Part shown: piece after piece, positions 3,437-16,453 of the stretch
Layout: each line of letters begins with the position of its first letter
Position numbering within the stretch: the stretch's first letter is position 1
Source of the DNA: Candidatus Saccharimonadota bacterium
GTDB taxonomy: Bacteria; Patescibacteriota; Saccharimonadia; Saccharimonadales; OFTM59
Reading direction: 5' to 3'
NCBI GenBank assembly: GCA_029260855.1
Contig: JAJDCK010000009.1
Location: 1,233 to 65,232, forward strand
DNA length: 64,000 nt
The notes under the pieces: model-generated
The model's database searches: none
What the model was told of the DNA's origin: nothing
The model's input: the letters and a program-made list of their open reading frames with translations, nothing else
Position numbers and translations under genes: made by a program

Positions 3437-5101
3437 ATGTTTAAAAAATTAATCAGCAACCTACCCTTCAACCCCAGCCTTATCAACCAGGTGTCTTTTT
3501 ATGCTAAGCGCATGCACAAGGAAGAAAAGCTAAGGCGCTTAGGCGTTATGATGGTGGTATTGTCGCTCTTTATCCAGATGTTTGCCATCATATCACCTCC
3601 CGAGCCAACACTTGCTGCGTCTGATAACGACATCTTGCGCGGTGGTTTTACTTCCCGTGATCAAGCTGTCGCCAAATGTCGGGCAAACGAACAAGGCTTT
3701 GCAACCATTCTTAGCGCTTACTTTTATACAAACGGCAACTTAAACGAAGCCTGTGATATGCTGGCTCGATCAATAAACTCTAAGATCAGGTCTACTGACC
3801 CCAATGGAAGCAAAAGACTTGTGTCTTTGGGCCGGATTAGCCAGGGACCAACCATTGCGCGTACCGGTAAGCCGACCGGTGAATATCCTGTGAATATTCA
3901 TGGAGCGGGAACTTTTTACATGAGAAACTTATGGGCATGGGACAGTGGCGAATACTCTACATATGATGCTTTAGCAGTAGCGAATAAGAATGGTACCACC
4001 ATATATGTATTATTCAATTGTGGCAACATCGTAACCAATGGCCATGTACCCCCACAAATACCAACTACACCACCCGTACCACAACCGCCAGTTACACCGG
4101 GTACTGCAGTTTGTACTAGCTTAGTCGCAACACCAATGAGCGAGCGGAAATACCGGTTTCAGGCTACGACAACCGGGAATGATTACACGGTAAAAAGTTA
4201 CGAGTTTAATTTCGGAAATAACAAGTCCAAAACAATAACCAGCAGCGCCAAGACAGCTACGACAGACCATACTTATGATGCGGCTAGCGCATATACCGCT
4301 AGCGTAAAGATAAATGTGGACGTCAAAGGCGCTAACGGCCCAGTTCCGCGAACCTTACTCTGCCAAGTTTCGGTGCTCACAACTACCCGCGACGAGTGCC
4401 CGCTAGTACCCGGCACCCAGACTAACAAGTCCGAGTGCGATGTCTGCCCCGCGATTCCGGGCGAACAAAGTACAACGGCAGAATGCAAACCCTGTGATGA
4501 CTCTCAAAACGATCAAGACGTAACCGCCTGCTTGGTGCTTACGAAAACAGCCAAGAACAATACGCAAAAAATTGAGAATGCGGACGGTACGATAGCTAAT
4601 GCCGACGATAGCGTAACTTATACGCTCAGAACCAAAAACACCGGCAAAGCGATTGTGCGTGGCTATGTAGTAGAAGAAAACATAAGCGACGTTTTGGACT
4701 ATGCTACCGTTACTAGTTTTGGCGGCGGCAAGCTGGAAGCAGACAATATTGTGCGCTGGCCAGCTACAGATATAAGCGCTGGCGGAACAATTACAAAGCA
4801 GTTAACTGTAAAGGTCAAAAATCCTATACCCCAAACACCGATTTCAGTCTCAGACCCAGCTAAGTTTGATTTGGTAATGAATAATGTCTACGGGAATGCC
4901 GTCAACATAAAGCTGCCTTCAAGCATTGTTAAAACTACCGAAACTATTACCGGCAGCCTGCCCAAGACTGGCCCCGGCACTACAGTAGTTATGAGTATTA
5001 TTATGACGATGATCGTGTCTTACTTCTTTGCCCGCAGTCGCCTGCTGGCCAAGGAAATGGATATGGTGCAGACTGAATACGTAATGAGTGGGAGCTATTA
5101 G
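3437..5101 (+). CDS. LPXTG-anchored cell-surface protein (sortase substrate) with Pro-rich linker, Cys-rich stalk and DUF11-like repeat region
   Basis: 554-aa ORF. It has an N-terminal hydrophobic anchor (GVMMVVLSLFIQMFAIISPP), a PPQIPTTPPVPQPPVTPG linker and Cys-containing mini-repeats. The C-terminus reads LPKTG, then a hydrophobic stretch (TTVVMSIIMTMIVSYFF), then ARSR, which is a classic sortase sorting signal. Confidence 0.75.
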   Translation: MFKKLISNLPFNPSLINQVSFYAKRMHKEEKLRRLGVMMVVLSLFIQMFAIISPPEPTLAASDNDILRGGFTSRDQAVAKCRANEQGFATILSAYFYTNGNLNEACDMLARSINSKIRSTDPNGSKRLVSLGRISQGPTIARTGKPTGEYPVNIHGAGTFYMRNLWAWDSGEYSTYDALAVANKNGTTIYVLFNCGNIVTNGHVPPQIPTTPPVPQPPVTPGTAVCTSLVATPMSERKYRFQATTTGNDYTVKSYEFNFGNNKSKTITSSAKTATTDHTYDAASAYTASVKINVDVKGANGPVPRTLLCQVSVLTTTRDECPLVPGTQTNKSECDVCPAIPGEQSTTAECKPCDDSQNDQDVTACLVLTKTAKNNTQKIENADGTIANADDSVTYTLRTKNTGKAIVRGYVVEENISDVLDYATVTSFGGGKLEADNIVRWPATDISAGGTITKQLTVKVKNPIPQTPISVSDPAKFDLVMNNVYGNAVNIKLPSSIVKTTETITGSLPKTGPGTTVVMSIIMTMIVSYFFARSRLLAKEMDMVQTEYVMSGSY

Positions 5102-5103
5102 AA

Positions 5104-5667
5104 ATGAGCGAGAAGATTGAACACGCAAGAAGCCCTGAACATAAGTCAGAATCGGTTGATGCGCTCGCAGAAGCTCAGCGAAACCTTGACCGTATACACA
5201 AAGAGGCCGGCAAGGAACGGCACCATGGCGCCAACATAGAGCAACTCCAGACGAAAGCCGAAAAGCAAGCCTTCAGTCGCGAAAAAATTACCGTCGGAGA
5301 GAAAGAGACTACCCCCTCACCCGTGGGCGTACAAAGGGAGTTAAAGACTACAGCTTACAAACAGACCATTAGGCGTATTCAAACCAAACTGAGGGGCTCA
5401 GATAAGGTTTTAAGCCACGTTATGCACCAACCTGTAGTAGAAAAATTGAGTAATTTTGGGGCCAATACTATAGCCAGGCCATCAGGTATCCTCGGTGGCG
5501 GAGTCATAGCTCTCCTTGGCAGTAGCATATTGCTATATCTGACCAAGTATTACGGATTTGAATACAACTTAACTGTATTTTTCATCCTTTTCATAGTCGG
5601 ATTCACAGCGGGAATTATTCTTGAAAGCCTAGTAAAACTCATGCGACGCAAACGAAGCATCAGCTAA
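5104..5667 (+). CDS. hypothetical membrane protein
   Basis: 187-aa ORF starting 2 nt after the previous stop. The N-terminal half is charged and there are two predicted C-terminal TM helices. I recognise no family. Confidence 0.6.
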   Translation: MSEKIEHARSPEHKSESVDALAEAQRNLDRIHKEAGKERHHGANIEQLQTKAEKQAFSREKITVGEKETTPSPVGVQRELKTTAYKQTIRRIQTKLRGSDKVLSHVMHQPVVEKLSNFGANTIARPSGILGGGVIALLGSSILLYLTKYYGFEYNLTVFFILFIVGFTAGIILESLVKLMRRKRSIS

Positions 5668-5718: not shown

Positions 5719-8694
5719 TTAGGCCTCTAGGTCTTTTGTGGTTCGAAGATTGCCGTCTTTATCAATATGAATAGTGTCTTCTGTTGAGTCCTGATTATCA
5801 CCTGTGGCGGGTTCGTTTCTGTTTATTTTGATCTCGCCGTGCATGGCTGACTGTTTAGGCCCTGGTTTAATCTCATCCCCCCTGAATGATTTTGATGTAT
5901 GATCGGTGCTATCGGTAGCGACCGTCGCATGATGTACAGCCTGGGGGGCTGCGGGAGTTTGTGGCGGGGTGCTTGCTGTACCAGGAGGCTGCGATGATAT
6001 AGGAGATGATGCTGTATGAGGCGGATCAGGCGCAGCGAATGGGGTTTGGGTGGTGGGTCCTGCTGCTGCCGTCTTAGGCCTAACAGGTCCTGTATCAGGC
6101 GAACCAGGGGTTTTTCGCTTCGCAAGCCACTCATCCAAGAATGACGCAGCACCGGGCTTGGGTGGTGCCTTAAAAGGCCCTCCCGCTGCCCCTGCACCAG
6201 CTGCTGGATAGCCACCGCCCATGGGGCCACCAAACGCTGGTCTAGCATCTTCTTTAGTGGCAAGTCTGGCAAAAATCTCTGATTCAACCGTATTCTTGGG
6301 TCGGCCAAATTTTGCCGCAGACAATTGCTTCAGCGCCTGTGCCAATTGTGGGTTAGGCGTACCGAGGGGCGGTAGAGCAGACATACTAAACGCATGTGTC
6401 GGCACACCACCGACAAGCGTGCGTACGATAGCATTGTAGTTTGGCACCCTTAGAAGGTCCTCCACTTCAAAGGATGGCTGGAAGTACTTTACGAGAGCGT
6501 CCACGTCTTTGTCGCCGACACGGAAAGCCACAATCGTACCCATATTACCGAAGACCGCATCGCGGATCTCTTCGGATAGCTGGGTAGTAAACTGGTTAGC
6601 CACAATCAAGTTAAGGTGATATTTACGAGCTTCTGACATGATGGTTGCAAACGAGTCAGTTGAGAAGTTCTGGAACTCATCTACATACAGACAGAAGTCT
6701 TTGCGTTCGCTTTCCGGCACATTGGCCCGACTCATAGCAGCTGCCTGAAACTTCATAACAAAGACCATACCAAGAAGTTTGGAGTTAAGTTCACCAGTGC
6801 GGCCCTTGCTAAGATTAACGATCAGTATCTTCTTATTGTCCATGATCTCCCGCAAGTTAAAAGCACTCTTTGTTTGGCCAATGATGTTGCGCATCATTTC
6901 ATTACTCAAGAATGCGCCAAACTTACTCACGAACCAGCCCAGCACCTCACTCTTGTGATAGTCGCTTGTAGAGGCCATCTCTTTATTCCAGAAGTCCAAA
7001 ACCGCCTGATCTTTAACGTGTTGGAGTTTTTGCTTGGCATACTTGTTATCTGTAAATACTTTAGGAATATCAATAAATGTAGCGCCTTCTGGGTCCGCCA
7101 TAATGGTCAAAGCAGCATTGCGGAACCAGTGTTCGTACCGGGGTCCTATAATACCTTGATGTTGAGGGTCGTACAGTTTGTAGAGCATATTAATGGCTTC
7201 CTGAATAAGAAAGTCTTTCTGTTCTGGCTGATGAAACTCAAACAAGTTAAGGCCCATCGGATAGTCCATGTCTGCTGGGCAAAAATAAATTACATCCTCA
7301 GTACGCTCCTTGGGGACCATTGAGAGTAGCCTTTCGGCTGTATCACCATGTGGATCAATAAAGGCAAACCCCTCCCCGTTAAGCATGTCTTGAAAGGCTA
7401 GGTTCTCTAGAAAGGTAGACTTACCGGTACCAGTCTGCCCCACAACATACATGTGTCTTTGGCGGTCTGGTAGAGCTAGTTTTATTTCCTTTTTGACTCC
7501 TCGGAAGATGTTGTAGCCAAGCATTATCCCTTCCTCGGCTATGTTTCTAGGACCGTCCACCTGCTTAGAGGCCTGGCGCTCCAGTTGTGAGGTCGGAATA
7601 TTCTTCTGGTCTGGAAAATGAAACAGTGTAGCGAGTTCAATTGAATTTAGAATACTTTTATTATTCTCTTGGGGGAAAAACCGCAATATATAAGCAGTAA
7701 CGAAGCGTTCAATGTCTTTAGCGGGAGTATATTTAAAACCATTCCTTCCCGGTGCATCAAAAAGCGAAAAAGTAGCCACAACGTTACTAAGAATCGACTG
7801 GGCCCTTTGAGATATATTAGACGAAGCCACCACACGTATGAGCACTTCGTAGCCTGTATGGCGAGTTTTTTCGTCAATAGCATCCAGAATTGCTTGATCC
7901 AAACCGGAAAGTTCAGGTTTGTCGCTACCGCCACCGCTCTTTTCCTCTGGTGGCTTTACGAAAGCGGTTATTAAATCACGTATTAATGCCGCTGTTTTTT
8001 CCAGCCCCTTCTTGCTGTTTTTGCCTTTGCGTTTTTTACTAGCAACCTCAGTTGCAGCCTTGCGCCACTCCGGGTTAGCTGGCCTCATCAAGAACTGTAT
8101 GCCGAGCCCGTCATCCTTATCAAGAGTTGAAAGGGCATTCAGCAGCGATTGCATTGCGTCGCGCTTCAGATCCTGATAAGTAGCTATAGGGTAGGCAAAA
8201 TTCTCTTTAAGTGTAAGCTCCCCGCCAACAGTACCGCTAATCTTGCCGACTGGGCTAAAAATATTGTGCTCCGCGACCTCTTCTAGCCTGACCGCAGGAT
8301 AAGCGCTTACCAAAGCCTGTTTCACCACATCAACCAATGCTACTGGCACGGCGGTATAGAAACGAACAAAGCCTTTACTGCCCACAATCTCAAATGTGAG
8401 GTGCCGCTGGCCATAAAACCTACTTTTAAGGCCTTTCTGAAGAGTGCTGGCTATTATGTTGTAGAGTATCTGGGCTTTGGATATGTTTTCGTCCACAACG
8501 TCACGCGTGTCTCTGCCGCCTATTTCAGTATCATCACTCTGTGGCGGCAAGTGAATAAGCAATGGCACCATCTTAAGGCCACGTTCAAAATTCTTTTGCT
8601 CACGAAATACTTTCCTAACTTGTATAAAAGCTATTGGCGAACCAACAGCTGCGATAATCAAGAGCACCACAAGCATAAAAAAGAAGGCTGTCAT
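5719..8694 (-). CDS. TrwB/TraD/VirD4-like (type IV coupling protein family) P-loop ATPase with N-terminal TM helix and long Pro/Ala-rich tail
   Basis: 991-aa ORF. Walker A VGQTGTGKST is followed by AFIDPHGD, and there is a Walker B-like LYVDEFQNF. An N-terminal TM helix (FFFMLVVLLIIAAVGSPIAF) is present. The C-terminal ~250 aa is low-complexity P/A/G-rich. Confidence 0.6.
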   Translation of the reverse strand: MTAFFFMLVVLLIIAAVGSPIAFIQVRKVFREQKNFERGLKMVPLLIHLPPQSDDTEIGGRDTRDVVDENISKAQILYNIIASTLQKGLKSRFYGQRHLTFEIVGSKGFVRFYTAVPVALVDVVKQALVSAYPAVRLEEVAEHNIFSPVGKISGTVGGELTLKENFAYPIATYQDLKRDAMQSLLNALSTLDKDDGLGIQFLMRPANPEWRKAATEVASKKRKGKNSKKGLEKTAALIRDLITAFVKPPEEKSGGGSDKPELSGLDQAILDAIDEKTRHTGYEVLIRVVASSNISQRAQSILSNVVATFSLFDAPGRNGFKYTPAKDIERFVTAYILRFFPQENNKSILNSIELATLFHFPDQKNIPTSQLERQASKQVDGPRNIAEEGIMLGYNIFRGVKKEIKLALPDRQRHMYVVGQTGTGKSTFLENLAFQDMLNGEGFAFIDPHGDTAERLLSMVPKERTEDVIYFCPADMDYPMGLNLFEFHQPEQKDFLIQEAINMLYKLYDPQHQGIIGPRYEHWFRNAALTIMADPEGATFIDIPKVFTDNKYAKQKLQHVKDQAVLDFWNKEMASTSDYHKSEVLGWFVSKFGAFLSNEMMRNIIGQTKSAFNLREIMDNKKILIVNLSKGRTGELNSKLLGMVFVMKFQAAAMSRANVPESERKDFCLYVDEFQNFSTDSFATIMSEARKYHLNLIVANQFTTQLSEEIRDAVFGNMGTIVAFRVGDKDVDALVKYFQPSFEVEDLLRVPNYNAIVRTLVGGVPTHAFSMSALPPLGTPNPQLAQALKQLSAAKFGRPKNTVESEIFARLATKEDARPAFGGPMGGGYPAAGAGAAGGPFKAPPKPGAASFLDEWLAKRKTPGSPDTGPVRPKTAAAGPTTQTPFAAPDPPHTASSPISSQPPGTASTPPQTPAAPQAVHHATVATDSTDHTSKSFRGDEIKPGPKQSAMHGEIKINRNEPATGDNQDSTEDTIHIDKDGNLRTTKDLEA

Positions 8695-13530: not shown

Positions 13531-13565
13531 AACCGCCTGTCGCATATGCTTCAGGTGGTTTTTTA
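13531..13565 (+). terminator. intrinsic terminator after rplT
   Basis: AACCGCCUG...CAGGUGGUU hairpin followed by UUUUU. Confidence 0.7.
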
Positions 13566-13568
13566 TGC

Positions 13569-13904
13569 CAGATTATCCGTAAGCCGGGTTCTGTTTTAGC
13601 TAATCATCTATCTAGTTTTGCCGTTGCCGACATAATCGAGCGGATCTTGTGACATACTTTCGGCGGGAACCTTAGTGAAAATATGTCTCCTTGCAGCAGA
13701 CAGGGTTTACCTCTTCCCAGCGTCACCACTGGGAACTGTGGGCTTTTACCCCACTCGTTTCACCCTTACTCTTACGAGCGGTATTGTTTCTGTGGCACTT
13801 TCCCTAGGGTTACCCCCGGTTGCCGTTAGCAACTGTCTCTCCCTGAGCTGCCCGGACTTTCCTCTCCGACGCGCAAAGCGTCGGGGCGATCAGCCGATAA
13901 TCTG
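13569..13904 (-). ncRNA. rnpB: RNase P RNA (bacterial type A)
   Basis: The minus-sense sequence contains the universal GAGGAAAGUCCGGGC, plus GGGUAACCC, GGGUGAAAC, GGUAAACCC and the 3' ACAGAACCCGGCUUA. The P1 helix is formed by AGAUUAUC (5') and GAUAAUCU (3'). Confidence 0.93.
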
Positions 13905-13943
13905 ACAATGAATATTATACCAAATAAATTCTTGCTTCTCTAT

Positions 13944-14412: not shown

Positions 14413-15090
14413 TCATACACTTTTTAGTTCGGCGTCAAGGATCTCGTTGACTTCGGCGTCAGCTAACTTATTAAGCTCGCGGGGCACATGTGTGAATGTA
14501 ACTTTATGAAAGCCTTTTATAAGATCTTTTATAGCCTCATGTATAGGCCACAAGTCCCGGTTTTTAACCTTAAAAATGCCTTTCATCTGATTAACAACTA
14601 GTAGGCTGTCCATATAGATTGCAATATCTAATGCCCCCGCTTTGCGGGCCTCCTCCAGGCCTATCTTGACAGCCTGATATTCGGCTTGATTATTAGTAGT
14701 AATACCTTGATAGATTCCGCTCTTCTTGATAACGACGTCATTCATGTCCATTATTACGTACGCTGACGCAGACGGACCGGGGTTACCCCTAGACCCTCCG
14801 TCGGTATACAGCTTGATTTGTTTAACCACAACTGGCGGTTTTTGTTCCTTTGGTGGCGCTGCCCCAATGGCGTCTACCCTTTCTGCAAATGTACGGTCTT
14901 TATCTGTTATTTTATTACCGGCATCATGACTGGTAAGCCATAGCTCGACAGTGCTATAACTGTTTCTAATTTCAGGATGATGGGTCAACTCTTCGGCGAT
15001 ATTAGCCACTTGGTTCATAAAGGCCACAGCCTCTTTGAAGCTACCAAAGCTGAATTTCTGATAAAGTTTATTGTCTGTTTCCTGCCACAT
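14413..15090 (-). CDS. fusion protein: pterin-4a-carbinolamine dehydratase (PCD/DCoH)-like N-domain + RNase HI C-domain
   Basis: 225-aa ORF. Residues ~1-75 carry the PCD signature (EELTHHPEIRNSYSTVELWLTSHDAGNKITDKD). Residues ~90-225 carry the RNase H type 1 DEDD residues in YTDGGSRGNPG, NNQAEYQAV, IYMDSLLVV and NKLADAEVN. Confidence 0.8.
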   Translation of the reverse strand: MWQETDNKLYQKFSFGSFKEAVAFMNQVANIAEELTHHPEIRNSYSTVELWLTSHDAGNKITDKDRTFAERVDAIGAAPPKEQKPPVVVKQIKLYTDGGSRGNPGPSASAYVIMDMNDVVIKKSGIYQGITTNNQAEYQAVKIGLEEARKAGALDIAIYMDSLLVVNQMKGIFKVKNRDLWPIHEAIKDLIKGFHKVTFTHVPRELNKLADAEVNEILDAELKSV

Positions 15091-15183: not shown

Positions 15184-15405
15184 GTATTTGAATAGTATAG
15201 CGTAAAGATGTCCGGGCCGTGAGGGCCTCACGATCACCTTCGGCGCCTACTTCCAGCAGGCTTGACATTGACTTGCTTGAAGCATAGCTTCAAATCAGTC
15301 AAGTGTCCTTGCGATGAGCTACAAGCTCATCTCACCCGAAACTTCATCTTTGAAAACAAGTTTTCAAGAGAAGGCTTCCTTGCACACTGCCGCTGGCAGT
15401 GCTCA

Positions 15406-15444
15406 CCCCAGCCGTACGCGCTACCAACTGCGCTACACCCCGAT
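15406..15444 (-). repeat. 39-nt direct repeat, copy 2 (orphan 5' half of tRNA-Pro: acceptor 5' strand, D-arm, anticodon stem 5' strand and loop through position 37)
   Basis: Perfect 39/39 identity with 15145-15183, located 261 nt upstream in tRNA orientation. No matching 3' half follows it. Confidence 0.95.
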
Positions 15445-15549
15445 AACTCTCGACCCTGAAAACTATAAGAGCTCCTAGAACTATACTGATAAAAATAGAG
15501 CTTTTAAAGAATTAGGCTTAGACTTGCGTACTTGAGTGCAGTTTGGTTC

Positions 15550-15591
15550 AAAAAAGAGCACCGTAAGTGAGCCGTACTTCATGGTACGGTG
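15550..15591 (-). terminator. intrinsic terminator
   Basis: Minus-sense CACCGUA...UACGGUG stem (an alternative inner hairpin is CCGUAC-CAUGAA-GUACGG) followed by CUCUUUUUUG. Confidence 0.6.
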
Positions 15592-15646
15592 AATGCGGGG
15601 CGCAGTTTTTGGGCCGAAATGTGCCAAGTACGAAAGTATAAAAATA

Positions 15647-15778
15647 GCTGGAGGGCCAGATGACAACCTGGTTTATTAATCCCAGGTGGGTCTCCGCACG
15701 ATAACACCACAGCGTTATCGAATATTGGAATCCCGAATGATAAGTATTCAGATTATCATTTACTGGCCCTTGCCCAGC
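15647..15778 (-). ncRNA. candidate structured ncRNA: 132-nt four-helix junction (family not recognised)
   Basis: The closing helix pairs GCUGG+GGGCCAG (15778-15763) with CUGGCCC+CCAGC (15659-15647). Three hairpins sit inside it: AAUGAUAA/UUAUCAUU (8 bp), CGAUAAC/GUUAUCG (7 bp) and ACCUGG/CCAGGU (6 bp). All pairs are Watson-Crick. An extended -10 promoter ends 7 nt upstream and UAUUUUUAU follows. No ORF is present. Confidence 0.5.
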
Positions 15779-15785
15779 AGGTCTT

Positions 15786-15794
15786 ATTATACCA
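15786..15794 (-). promoter_or_regulatory. extended -10 promoter (TGgTATAAT)
   Basis: Minus-sense TGGTATAAT overlaps the last bases after the M50 protease stop. The predicted transcription start coincides with the first base of the closing helix at 15778. Confidence 0.45.
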
Positions 15795-15799
15795 ACTTA

Positions 15800-16453
15800 T
15801 CAGCCTATAAGAAGATTCAAAATCGTAATATTAACGGTTCTTAAAATCGGGCTAATGAGTGGAAAAAAGAGAAAAATAAAGATAAACAACCCTGCAAGCC
15901 CCATATTCTCTATTTGGGCCATTATGTTTCTGACCGGCTCAGGCGCTAAGGCATAAAGCAGCCTCGACCCATCAAGAGGAGGAAAAGGGATCATATTAAA
16001 AACAAAAAAGCCGACATTAACCTGAAGGAATATAAATAATAGGCTAAGTAAGACCTCGCCACCTCCGGCATTAAACGAAAGACGTATCAAAACGGCCGTT
16101 ACTAGAGCCAGGGCTAGATTAGTCAACGGACCAGCCAGACCGACCATCGCCGCGCCGAAGTCATCGTATTTTACCCTAGCTGGATTAAATGGCACCGGCT
16201 TGGCCGCACCAACTATAGGCAGATTACGCGCAGATACGCTATTAATGTTGAGAAGTATTAGGCTCAAAGGTAATAATACTGTCAGAAACGGATCAATGTG
16301 CCTGATAGGGTTTAGTGTCAGCCTACCTTCTAGCCGTGCGGTGTCGTCTCCAAGCCAGTTACTTGCAAAGGCATGCATGGCTTCATGCAAGGTCATAGAT
16401 ACCAAGATTGAACCCACAACCGCTATAATCAGAAAAATCGTACTGTCTGCCAT
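15800..16453 (-). CDS. site-2 protease family (peptidase M50) membrane metalloprotease
   Basis: 217-aa polytopic membrane ORF with HExxH (LHEAMHAF) in the first TM region and a downstream PPLDGSRLL motif. Confidence 0.85.
   Translation of the reverse strand: MADSTIFLIIAVVGSILVSMTLHEAMHAFASNWLGDDTARLEGRLTLNPIRHIDPFLTVLLPLSLILLNINSVSARNLPIVGAAKPVPFNPARVKYDDFGAAMVGLAGPLTNLALALVTAVLIRLSFNAGGGEVLLSLLFIFLQVNVGFFVFNMIPFPPLDGSRLLYALAPEPVRNIMAQIENMGLAGLFIFIFLFFPLISPILRTVNITILNLLIG

Follow-up and report, generated by a model that had tools for sequence, protein, structure and literature searches.

The window analysed here is a 64,000-nucleotide (nt) stretch of a Candidatus Saccharimonadota genome (contig JAJDCK010000009.1, positions 1,233 to 65,232 of the forward strand), and the element in question is a small structured RNA gene at 15647-15794 on its minus strand. 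An earlier note, made by reading the letters alone, had placed this element between an M50 protease gene and a tRNA-Pro locus and described it as a self-contained transcription unit. Its location was confirmed: the upstream open reading frame (ORF) at 15800-16453 encodes a Peptidase_M50 protein, and a tRNA-Pro(GGG) gene lies downstream at 15181-15106. The coordinates, the -10 box, the closing helices, the three hairpins (AAUGAUAA/UUAUCAUU, CGAUAAC/GUUAUCG and ACCUGG/CCAGGU) and the terminal UAUUUUUAU were likewise all recovered on the minus strand. The window holds one copy of the element, and an exact-protein look-up of the M50 ORF found it not on record.

The extended -10 box TGGTATAAT occupies 15786-15794 on the minus strand, at a distance of 7 nt from G15778, and since it begins 6 nt after the M50 stop codon, the corresponding -35 region would fall within the M50 coding sequence. 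The predicted RNA (15638-15778, minus strand, as are all its parts) consists of a 132-nt paired core (15778-15647) and the U-rich tail UAUUUUUAU (15638-15646), which lies directly 3' of the closing stem. The 5' strand of this stem (15763-15778) comprises GCUGG (15778-15774), a GCAA bulge and GGGCCAG (15769-15763), and its 3' strand (15647-15659) comprises CUGGCCC (15659-15653), a U bulge and CCAGC (15651-15647). Within the closing stem, a helix that we call P2 pairs the 5' strand AUGAUAAUC (15751-15759) with the 3' strand GGUUGUCAU (15660-15668), and the former adjoins a 16-nt 5' central bulge, UGAAUACUUAUCAUUC (15735-15750). The short apical stem (15688-15734) is composed of GGG-A-UUCC/GGAG-A-CCC, an internal loop and the helix CGAUAACGC/GUGUUAUCG, capped by a UGUG tetraloop (15711-15708). 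It is followed by the 3' central-bulge hairpin ACCUGG-GAUUAAUAAA-CCAGGU (15666-15687), the 3' strand of which shares 2-3 nt with the P2 3' strand. The earlier note had also seen a second terminator at 15550-15591 on the same strand; a hairpin followed by CUCUUUUUU is indeed present there and is a possible back-up terminator, but it is not conserved with the RNA, and an nhmmer search with 15445-15646 found no homologue of that interval in related loci.

The amount of pairing in the element exceeds what chance would give, as had been claimed: the window RNA has a minimum free energy at -53.7 kcal/mol, compared with -34.2 +/- 3.8 kcal/mol for 200 dinucleotide shuffles (z = -5.17), none of which folded as well. 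Folding energy leaves the strand open, because the complementary plus strand folds equally well (z = -6.0). The minus strand is instead indicated by the G-U pairs in P2 (AUGAUAAUC/GGUUGUCAU), by the conserved promoter and U-tail, and by the fact that all homologues lie on the strand of the M50 gene.

The M50 protein places the window in the Saccharibacteria, as its best relatives, with 45-58% identity, come almost without exception from metagenome-assembled genomes of that group. The element was used in an nhmmer search of 80 M50 loci (related loci are labelled by L-numbers below, L082-L201 being metagenome contigs), which gave 16 matches, all of them directly downstream of the M50 gene and on its strand, and a simple regular expression raised the number of loci with the element to 39. 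Each of these copies has a TATAAT box in front of it and a helix with a U-run behind it. A covariance model, R1, was then built from a 40-sequence alignment with a hand-specified structure. R1 matched 48 Saccharibacteria loci and the window with 33-162 bits (window: 74.1 bits, E = 2.6e-13), including nine loci absent from model building, and in all 48 the element again sits directly downstream of the M50 gene on the M50 strand. R1 had zero matches in the non-Saccharibacteria M50 loci, and it also matched seven metagenome loci, fetched for an unrelated reason, in which the element adjoins tRNA-Pro. Each locus has one copy. The search for homologues in related genomes suggested in the earlier note was thus positive, and the synteny it asked about holds for the M50 neighbourhood, while tRNA-Pro is downstream in some loci only, often but not always.

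Across the 49 copies the paired core measures 127-156 nt (median 144). In 47 of them a TATAAT-like box agreeing at 5 or 6 of 6 positions precedes the closing helix by 3-12 nt, and in 35 of 49 the helix is followed by a U-run, defined as 5 or more U among the next 9 nt. To judge the structure, the 49 sequences were realigned with the covariance model (alignment A3) and compared with 500 column shuffles and with controls in which the pairing partners were slid by 1-3 columns. In A3, 89.1% of the cells are paired, against 71.2% in the shuffles and 43-51% in the slid controls; 35 of 43 pairs have changed on both sides, and 420 doubly changed cells are seen where about 116 would be expected. Not one of the 500 shuffles reached the observed values. 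The two closing-stem helices and both parts of the long apical hairpin have the best support: all 16 pairs of the two closing-stem helices have changed on both sides (83-90% of cells paired), and the apical stem carries the strongest covariation of the family (93-97% paired, 11 of 14 pairs with double changes). P2 is paired in 83.8% of cells and the 3'-bulge hairpin in 91.7%, the latter with double changes in 3-4 pairs. RNAalifold on MAFFT alignments had recovered the apical stem only or a P2 out of register, a consequence of misalignment of the 3' strand among subgroups; this route was replaced by the hand-specified structure and covariance-model realignment.

These comparative data indicate that Saccharibacteria (TM7) possess the element as a real small-RNA gene that is conserved among them, and they bear out the earlier view of a genuine structured RNA with a non-coding transcription unit of its own. 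Judging from sequence, its own -10 promoter would start the transcript, and the closing stem and the U-run, which resemble an intrinsic terminator, would end it.

The identity of the RNA was sought in Rfam. The earlier note had found no recognisable family and no 6S signatures, but the sole meaningful match in Rfam is RF00013, the 6S/SsrS family, for which the curated gathering score is 46.4 bits. In searches confined to the element, RF00013 matched locus L001 along the full-length model (36.0 bits, E = 4.4e-6) and L018 of the main subgroup (31.8 bits, E = 3.2e-5), in both cases with no other family at E < 3, and it matched the window at 15647-15773 on the minus strand (28.2 bits, E = 2.2e-4) with no other match. 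When 67 kb from eight related loci were scanned against Rfam at E <= 5, L001 again matched RF00013 along its full length (36.0 bits, E = 1.2e-3). At gathering thresholds, a scan of the whole 64-kb window gave no match on the element, returning only RNase P RNA and tRNAs, and a 1.2-kb scan at E <= 10 gave none on it either. The Rfam check proposed earlier was accordingly split in its outcome, with no match at the gathering threshold but a sub-threshold 6S match in the element-only searches, and ordinary annotation misses the gene because its RF00013 scores lie below that threshold. Signal recognition particle (SRP) RNA, 5S rRNA, tRNA-like, Y RNA, riboswitch and small-ribozyme identities were rejected, no such Rfam model matching the element at E <= 10; the models for tRNA, SRP RNA, transfer-messenger RNA (tmRNA), RNase P RNA and riboswitches in Rfam 15 were also without a match to it at E <= 10.

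The 6S assignment agrees with the conserved nucleotides. The invariant core of the family, GGGA..ACCCACCU(G/U)G, is the 6S consensus around the central bulge, and the most conserved RF00013 columns, GGGagccc...gggcaCCCACCUgg..CaGGuUCa, coincide with invariant or near-invariant positions of the family, namely G57 G58 (G59) A60 ... (A100 C101) C102 C103 A104 C105 (C106) T107 in alignments A1 and A2. E. coli ssrS bears the same motif, CACCUUGAACCAAGGGUUCAAGG, and for the conserved nucleotides on either side of the bulge (GGG..CCC closing the apical stem, CCCACCU... on the 3' side) E. coli has CACCUUGAACCAAGG. In the RF00013 alignment, P2 of the family falls on the helix gcccCuGAgCC/GGuUCaAgggc, the window's 5' central bulge on the unpaired gAaaauuuuuauaaua, GGGA.CC/GG.ACCC on GGGagccc/gggcaCCC, and the 3'-bulge hairpin on CCCACCUgg..CaGGuU, with ACCUGG..CCAGGU corresponding to ACCUgg..CaGGuU. 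The apical stem spans about 47 nt, with 5-7 nt where the model has its distal 32 nt, and the closing stem too is reduced in length. The predicted length of 127-156 nt plus tail is at or below the usual range of about 150-200 nt for 6S RNAs.

Set beside E. coli-type 6S RNA (ssrS, RF00013), the Saccharibacteria RNA shares paired ends that form a closing stem with interruptions, a large 5' central bulge, here predicted to be single-stranded, that faces a small hairpin, GGG-A-NNNN/NNNN-A-CCC as the closure of the apical stem, the motif CCCACCU(U/G)G...GG, and a stand-alone gene with a sigma-70-type promoter, which is here predicted. It differs in its size (127-156 nt versus about 184 nt, with an apical stem of about 47 nt and a shorter closing stem), in scoring 10-18 bits under the gathering score of the family, and in its neighbours, which are the M50 protease and tRNA-Pro genes here and zapA-ssrS-fau in E. 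coli. Compared with B. subtilis 6S-1 (bsrA) and the 6S RNAs of Lactobacillales, the likeness lies in the 3'-bulge hairpin, in a possible central-bulge-collapse helix that could form once P2 opens, and in the predicted product RNA considered below, whereas the Saccharibacteria RNA is of much smaller size. Divergent 6S RNAs that covariance models miss, among them those of Aquifex aeolicus and Weissella, belong to other lineages. Taken together, the element is probably the ssrS gene of this Saccharibacterium, encoding a miniaturised and sequence-divergent 6S RNA of about 140 nt that standard annotation has missed; most likely it is not a new RNA class but an unannotated, divergent and unusually short member of the known 6S family.

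A conserved YGYG tetraloop followed by G caps the apical hairpin (A3 columns 98-104; window 15708-15711), being CGUG in most members and UGUG in the window. We know of no such feature in other 6S RNAs, and it could be a contact site for a protein or for a tertiary interaction.

The earlier note had drawn a giant cloverleaf, a four-way junction, as the fold of the RNA. The minimum-free-energy fold of the window RNA contains instead 6 bp of P2 and the full ACCUGG/CCAGGU hairpin, and the comparative data support a 6S-type rod with a two-helix closing stem, P2, a 5' bulge, a 3'-bulge hairpin and a short apical stem, and the cloverleaf is better seen as a secondary conformer. The two folds compete because the P2 5' strand can fold onto the 5' bulge in the first hairpin of the cloverleaf, which excludes P2; in the window RNA P2 has a mean pair probability of 0.59, against 0.21 for that hairpin. 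The window P2 (AUGAUAAUC/GGUUGUCAU) holds two U-G pairs, where most members have AUGAUUUUCC/GGAAUAUCA, and in most members P2 is the most stable of three competing duplexes. The 5' bulge between P2 and the apical stem measures 13-18 nt in all members, and part of this stretch can pair alternatively with the P2 5' strand or with the P2 3' strand. The first of these pairings, a 5' hairpin (AUGAU/AUCAU), is formable with 89.5% of cells paired across the family. The second joins the bulge's 3' end to the P2 3' strand; it is paired in 76.3% of cells on an alignment not optimised for that helix and shows compensatory changes: UGAUA/UAUCA is replaced by CGAUA/UAUCG in L016, AGAUA/UAUCU in L028, L033 and L036, AGAUGA/UCAUCU in L020 and ACCAAC/GUUGGU in L047.

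Such rearrangements have a counterpart in the published biology of 6S RNA (PMC12005410, PMC4793215, PMC4227106, PMC8414754), from which a mechanism can be proposed by analogy. The rod would mimic an open promoter and sit in the active-site cleft of the RNA polymerase holoenzyme that carries the housekeeping factor sigma-70/sigma-A, and this sequestration would damp transcription in the non-growing cell. When nucleoside triphosphates return, the polymerase would make a short product RNA by copying the 5' bulge together with the P2 5' strand, the predicted template, and the resulting hybrid would displace the P2 3' strand. The freed strand would then find new pairing partners in the 3'-bulge hairpin and in the 3' part of the 5' bulge, collapsing the bulge and releasing the polymerase. 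Features of the family fit this scheme: the 3'-bulge hairpin can be lengthened by the G-run of the P2 3' strand, a change described for E. coli, and the UAUCA segment of that strand is able to pair with the bulge in the manner of the "central bulge collapse helix" of 6S-1 and Aquifex 6S. Both this helix and an extended 3'-bulge hairpin have been described for 6S RNAs (PMC4793215, PMC12005410, PMC4227106), and the conserved alternative pairings with their compensatory changes would match those expected for a rearrangement driven by a product RNA.

By analogy with PMC8414754, synthesis in the window genome is predicted to start opposite U15746 and to yield 5'-AUUCAGAUUAUCAU, and 5'-GUUAGGAAAAUCAU would be made in most relatives. 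The latter, the prediction for the main group, has GG at positions 5/6, AA at positions 9/10 and a template A next to the start site. [quoted passage not shown]

Several points weigh against the 6S assignment. The three RF00013 scores all lie below the gathering score of 46.4 bits, so that standard pipelines would not call a 6S RNA here, and the RNA is about 130-160 nt long where a typical 6S RNA has about 180-200 nt. R1 found no match in the E. coli ssrS locus even with filters off, this reciprocal test being uninformative. The predicted product RNA of the window, AUUCAGAUUAUCAU, starts with A and lacks the GG doublet, unlike those of B. subtilis 6S-1 and Lactobacillales, and the product RNA as such is a prediction in this family. 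The exact four-way junction of the earlier note, at -51.1 kcal/mol, is 2.6 kcal/mol above the minimum, and covariation cannot rank the open-bulge fold against the 5' hairpin fold because P2 is nearly invariant. It is also possible that a second, canonical 6S gene exists elsewhere in the genome, since the searches covered loci rather than whole genomes.

Some of these points could be read as signs of a new class of trans-acting structured RNA, with a function unrelated to 6S RNA and the four-way junction as its native fold, its likeness to 6S being convergent or a remnant. The sub-threshold scores, the stability of the four-way fold in the window, the 5' hairpin formable in 89.5% of cells, the compensatory changes in the helix between the bulge 3' end and the 3' strand, and the conserved YGYG tetraloop on a long hairpin would all suit such a class. 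We nevertheless regard it as unlikely, as the element gave three independent, significant, full-length matches to RF00013 with no other family at E < 3, its conserved nucleotides are exactly those conserved in 6S RNA, 6S RNAs are themselves expected to have alternative pairings, and in most members P2 surpasses the two duplexes that compete with it in stability. There is a similarly small chance that the RNA descends from 6S RNA but no longer acts as a plain polymerase decoy, its two conserved and mutually exclusive folds forming a built-in switch that needs no product RNA, or the RNA itself binding a different partner; if true, the ultra-small episymbiotic Saccharibacteria would have in it a minimal global regulator with a new mechanism.

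A cis-acting role is less likely still. The element always follows the M50 stop codon directly and often precedes tRNA-Pro, and its two alternative folds and terminator-like end would fit an M50 3' untranslated region or terminator structure, or else a leader or riboswitch that controls the downstream tRNA-Pro locus through mutually exclusive helices. Against this, 47 of 49 copies have their own -10 box at a fixed distance from the closing helix, many loci have no tRNA-Pro downstream, the next gene in L019 encodes RNase P RNA, and no riboswitch family matches at E <= 10. A switch of this kind cannot gate read-through, because the outermost helix forms the terminator in both folds. Finally, that the element is a functionless chance or selfish palindrome, e.g. 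a repeat or a mobile-element remnant, as a mobile-looking structured module just downstream might suggest, is effectively refuted by its conserved position and covariation, since it is single-copy in the window, occupies an orthologous position in at least 55 loci with M50 proteins only 45-58% identical, and shows extensive compensatory substitutions.

Other RNA genes are found near the 6S-like gene, and housekeeping RNA genes cluster around it. The RNase P RNA gene of the window (13564-13905, minus strand) is separate from the element and lies 1-3 kb downstream of it, as RNase P RNA does in all eight relatives scanned. In L019 the RNase P RNA gene (4794-5137) immediately follows the 6S-like gene, and a tmRNA gene (7899-8295) is located 3 kb further on. 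The window also contains, at 14413-15090 on the minus strand, an ORF with the unusual combination of an N-terminal pterin-4a-carbinolamine dehydratase and a C-terminal RNase H domain (Pfam Pterin_4a, RNase_H and RVT_3).

The interval between the 6S-like gene and tRNA-Pro holds a further structured sequence at 15184-15444 (minus strand). Its first 39 nt (15444-15406) exactly repeat the start of tRNA-Pro(GGG): the copy begins 2 nt upstream of the gene and extends to nt 37, after which a conserved structured module, here called M, stands in place of the remaining tRNA. M of the window reads UGAGCACUGCC-AGC-GGCAGUGUGCAAGG, then a long hairpin, then ..GAAGUUUCGGG, and a second M-like module (UGAGAUGAGCU..GCAAGG..) is nested after the GGG of the first. 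The nested module is followed by ..UCGUGAGG, where tRNA sequence resumes, a TATACT box and the intact tRNA-Pro gene (15181-15106). The layout of a partial tRNA with M also occurs in L022, L044, L010 and L016, and M is widespread, a metagenome scan with its 5' signature having retrieved at least 120 stretches with at least 125 copies (examples are L094:2490-2760, L098, L109, L119 and L151). Among the matches listed, several contigs carry two or three copies; the common form is 86 nt long with three consecutive hairpins, in which 22 of 35 pairs show compensatory changes, and M always has the orientation of the adjacent tRNA gene and lies within a truncated copy of that tRNA beside the intact gene. 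The structure is strand-specific because of a conserved G-U pair.

Two arrangements of M can be told apart. In class 1, nt 1 to x of a tRNA are followed by M, about 10 nt that continue the tRNA, a spacer and the intact tRNA, the breakpoint x clustering in the D loop (nt 17), at the end of the D arm (nt 22-25), in the anticodon loop (nt 37) and in the T loop (nt 50-54). In class 2, an intact tRNA is followed by a terminator, about 45 nt, M and a copy of the tRNA 3' end. M was rejected as an intron of a working tRNA, since in-silico removal restores the tRNA in only 4 of 130 copies among the matches listed; the partial tRNA-Pro was rejected as a group I intron, there being no Intron_gpI match and the known tRNA introns of Patescibacteria being 184-894 nt long and situated in the anticodon loop. 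M matched no Rfam family, and a phage-borne origin was discarded as there were no matches in viral contigs. M could be a miniature element that integrates or transposes, with tRNA-like stem-loops as its targets, or a functional RNA composed of a tRNA fragment and a scaffold, and with it the Patescibacteria may have a small mobile or tRNA-associated RNA element of a new kind. At the tRNA-Gln loci L097 and L098 the tRNA 3' end is duplicated directly downstream, so that TCGAATCCCTCATCCCCAGCCA occurs twice, and in L119 the duplicated segment takes in the identical terminator, which points to repeated remodelling of these tRNA loci through recombination or duplication.

6S RNA is a near-universal global regulator that acts on RNA polymerase, and the Saccharibacteria, like other Patescibacteria, have tiny genomes with few known regulators. 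The library of papers searched had none on 6S RNA in Saccharibacteria or the Candidate Phyla Radiation, and a transcriptome paper on TM7x, the cultured model, reports no validated small RNAs. As a 6S RNA, the element would fill the annotation gap for this regulator in the Saccharibacteria, and the 56 family sequences could extend the Rfam 6S model. A natural "minimal 6S" of about 140 nt would be useful for defining what RNA polymerase must recognise, and a 6S-like RNA would give a testable handle on the switch between dormant and growing states in Saccharibacteria episymbionts.

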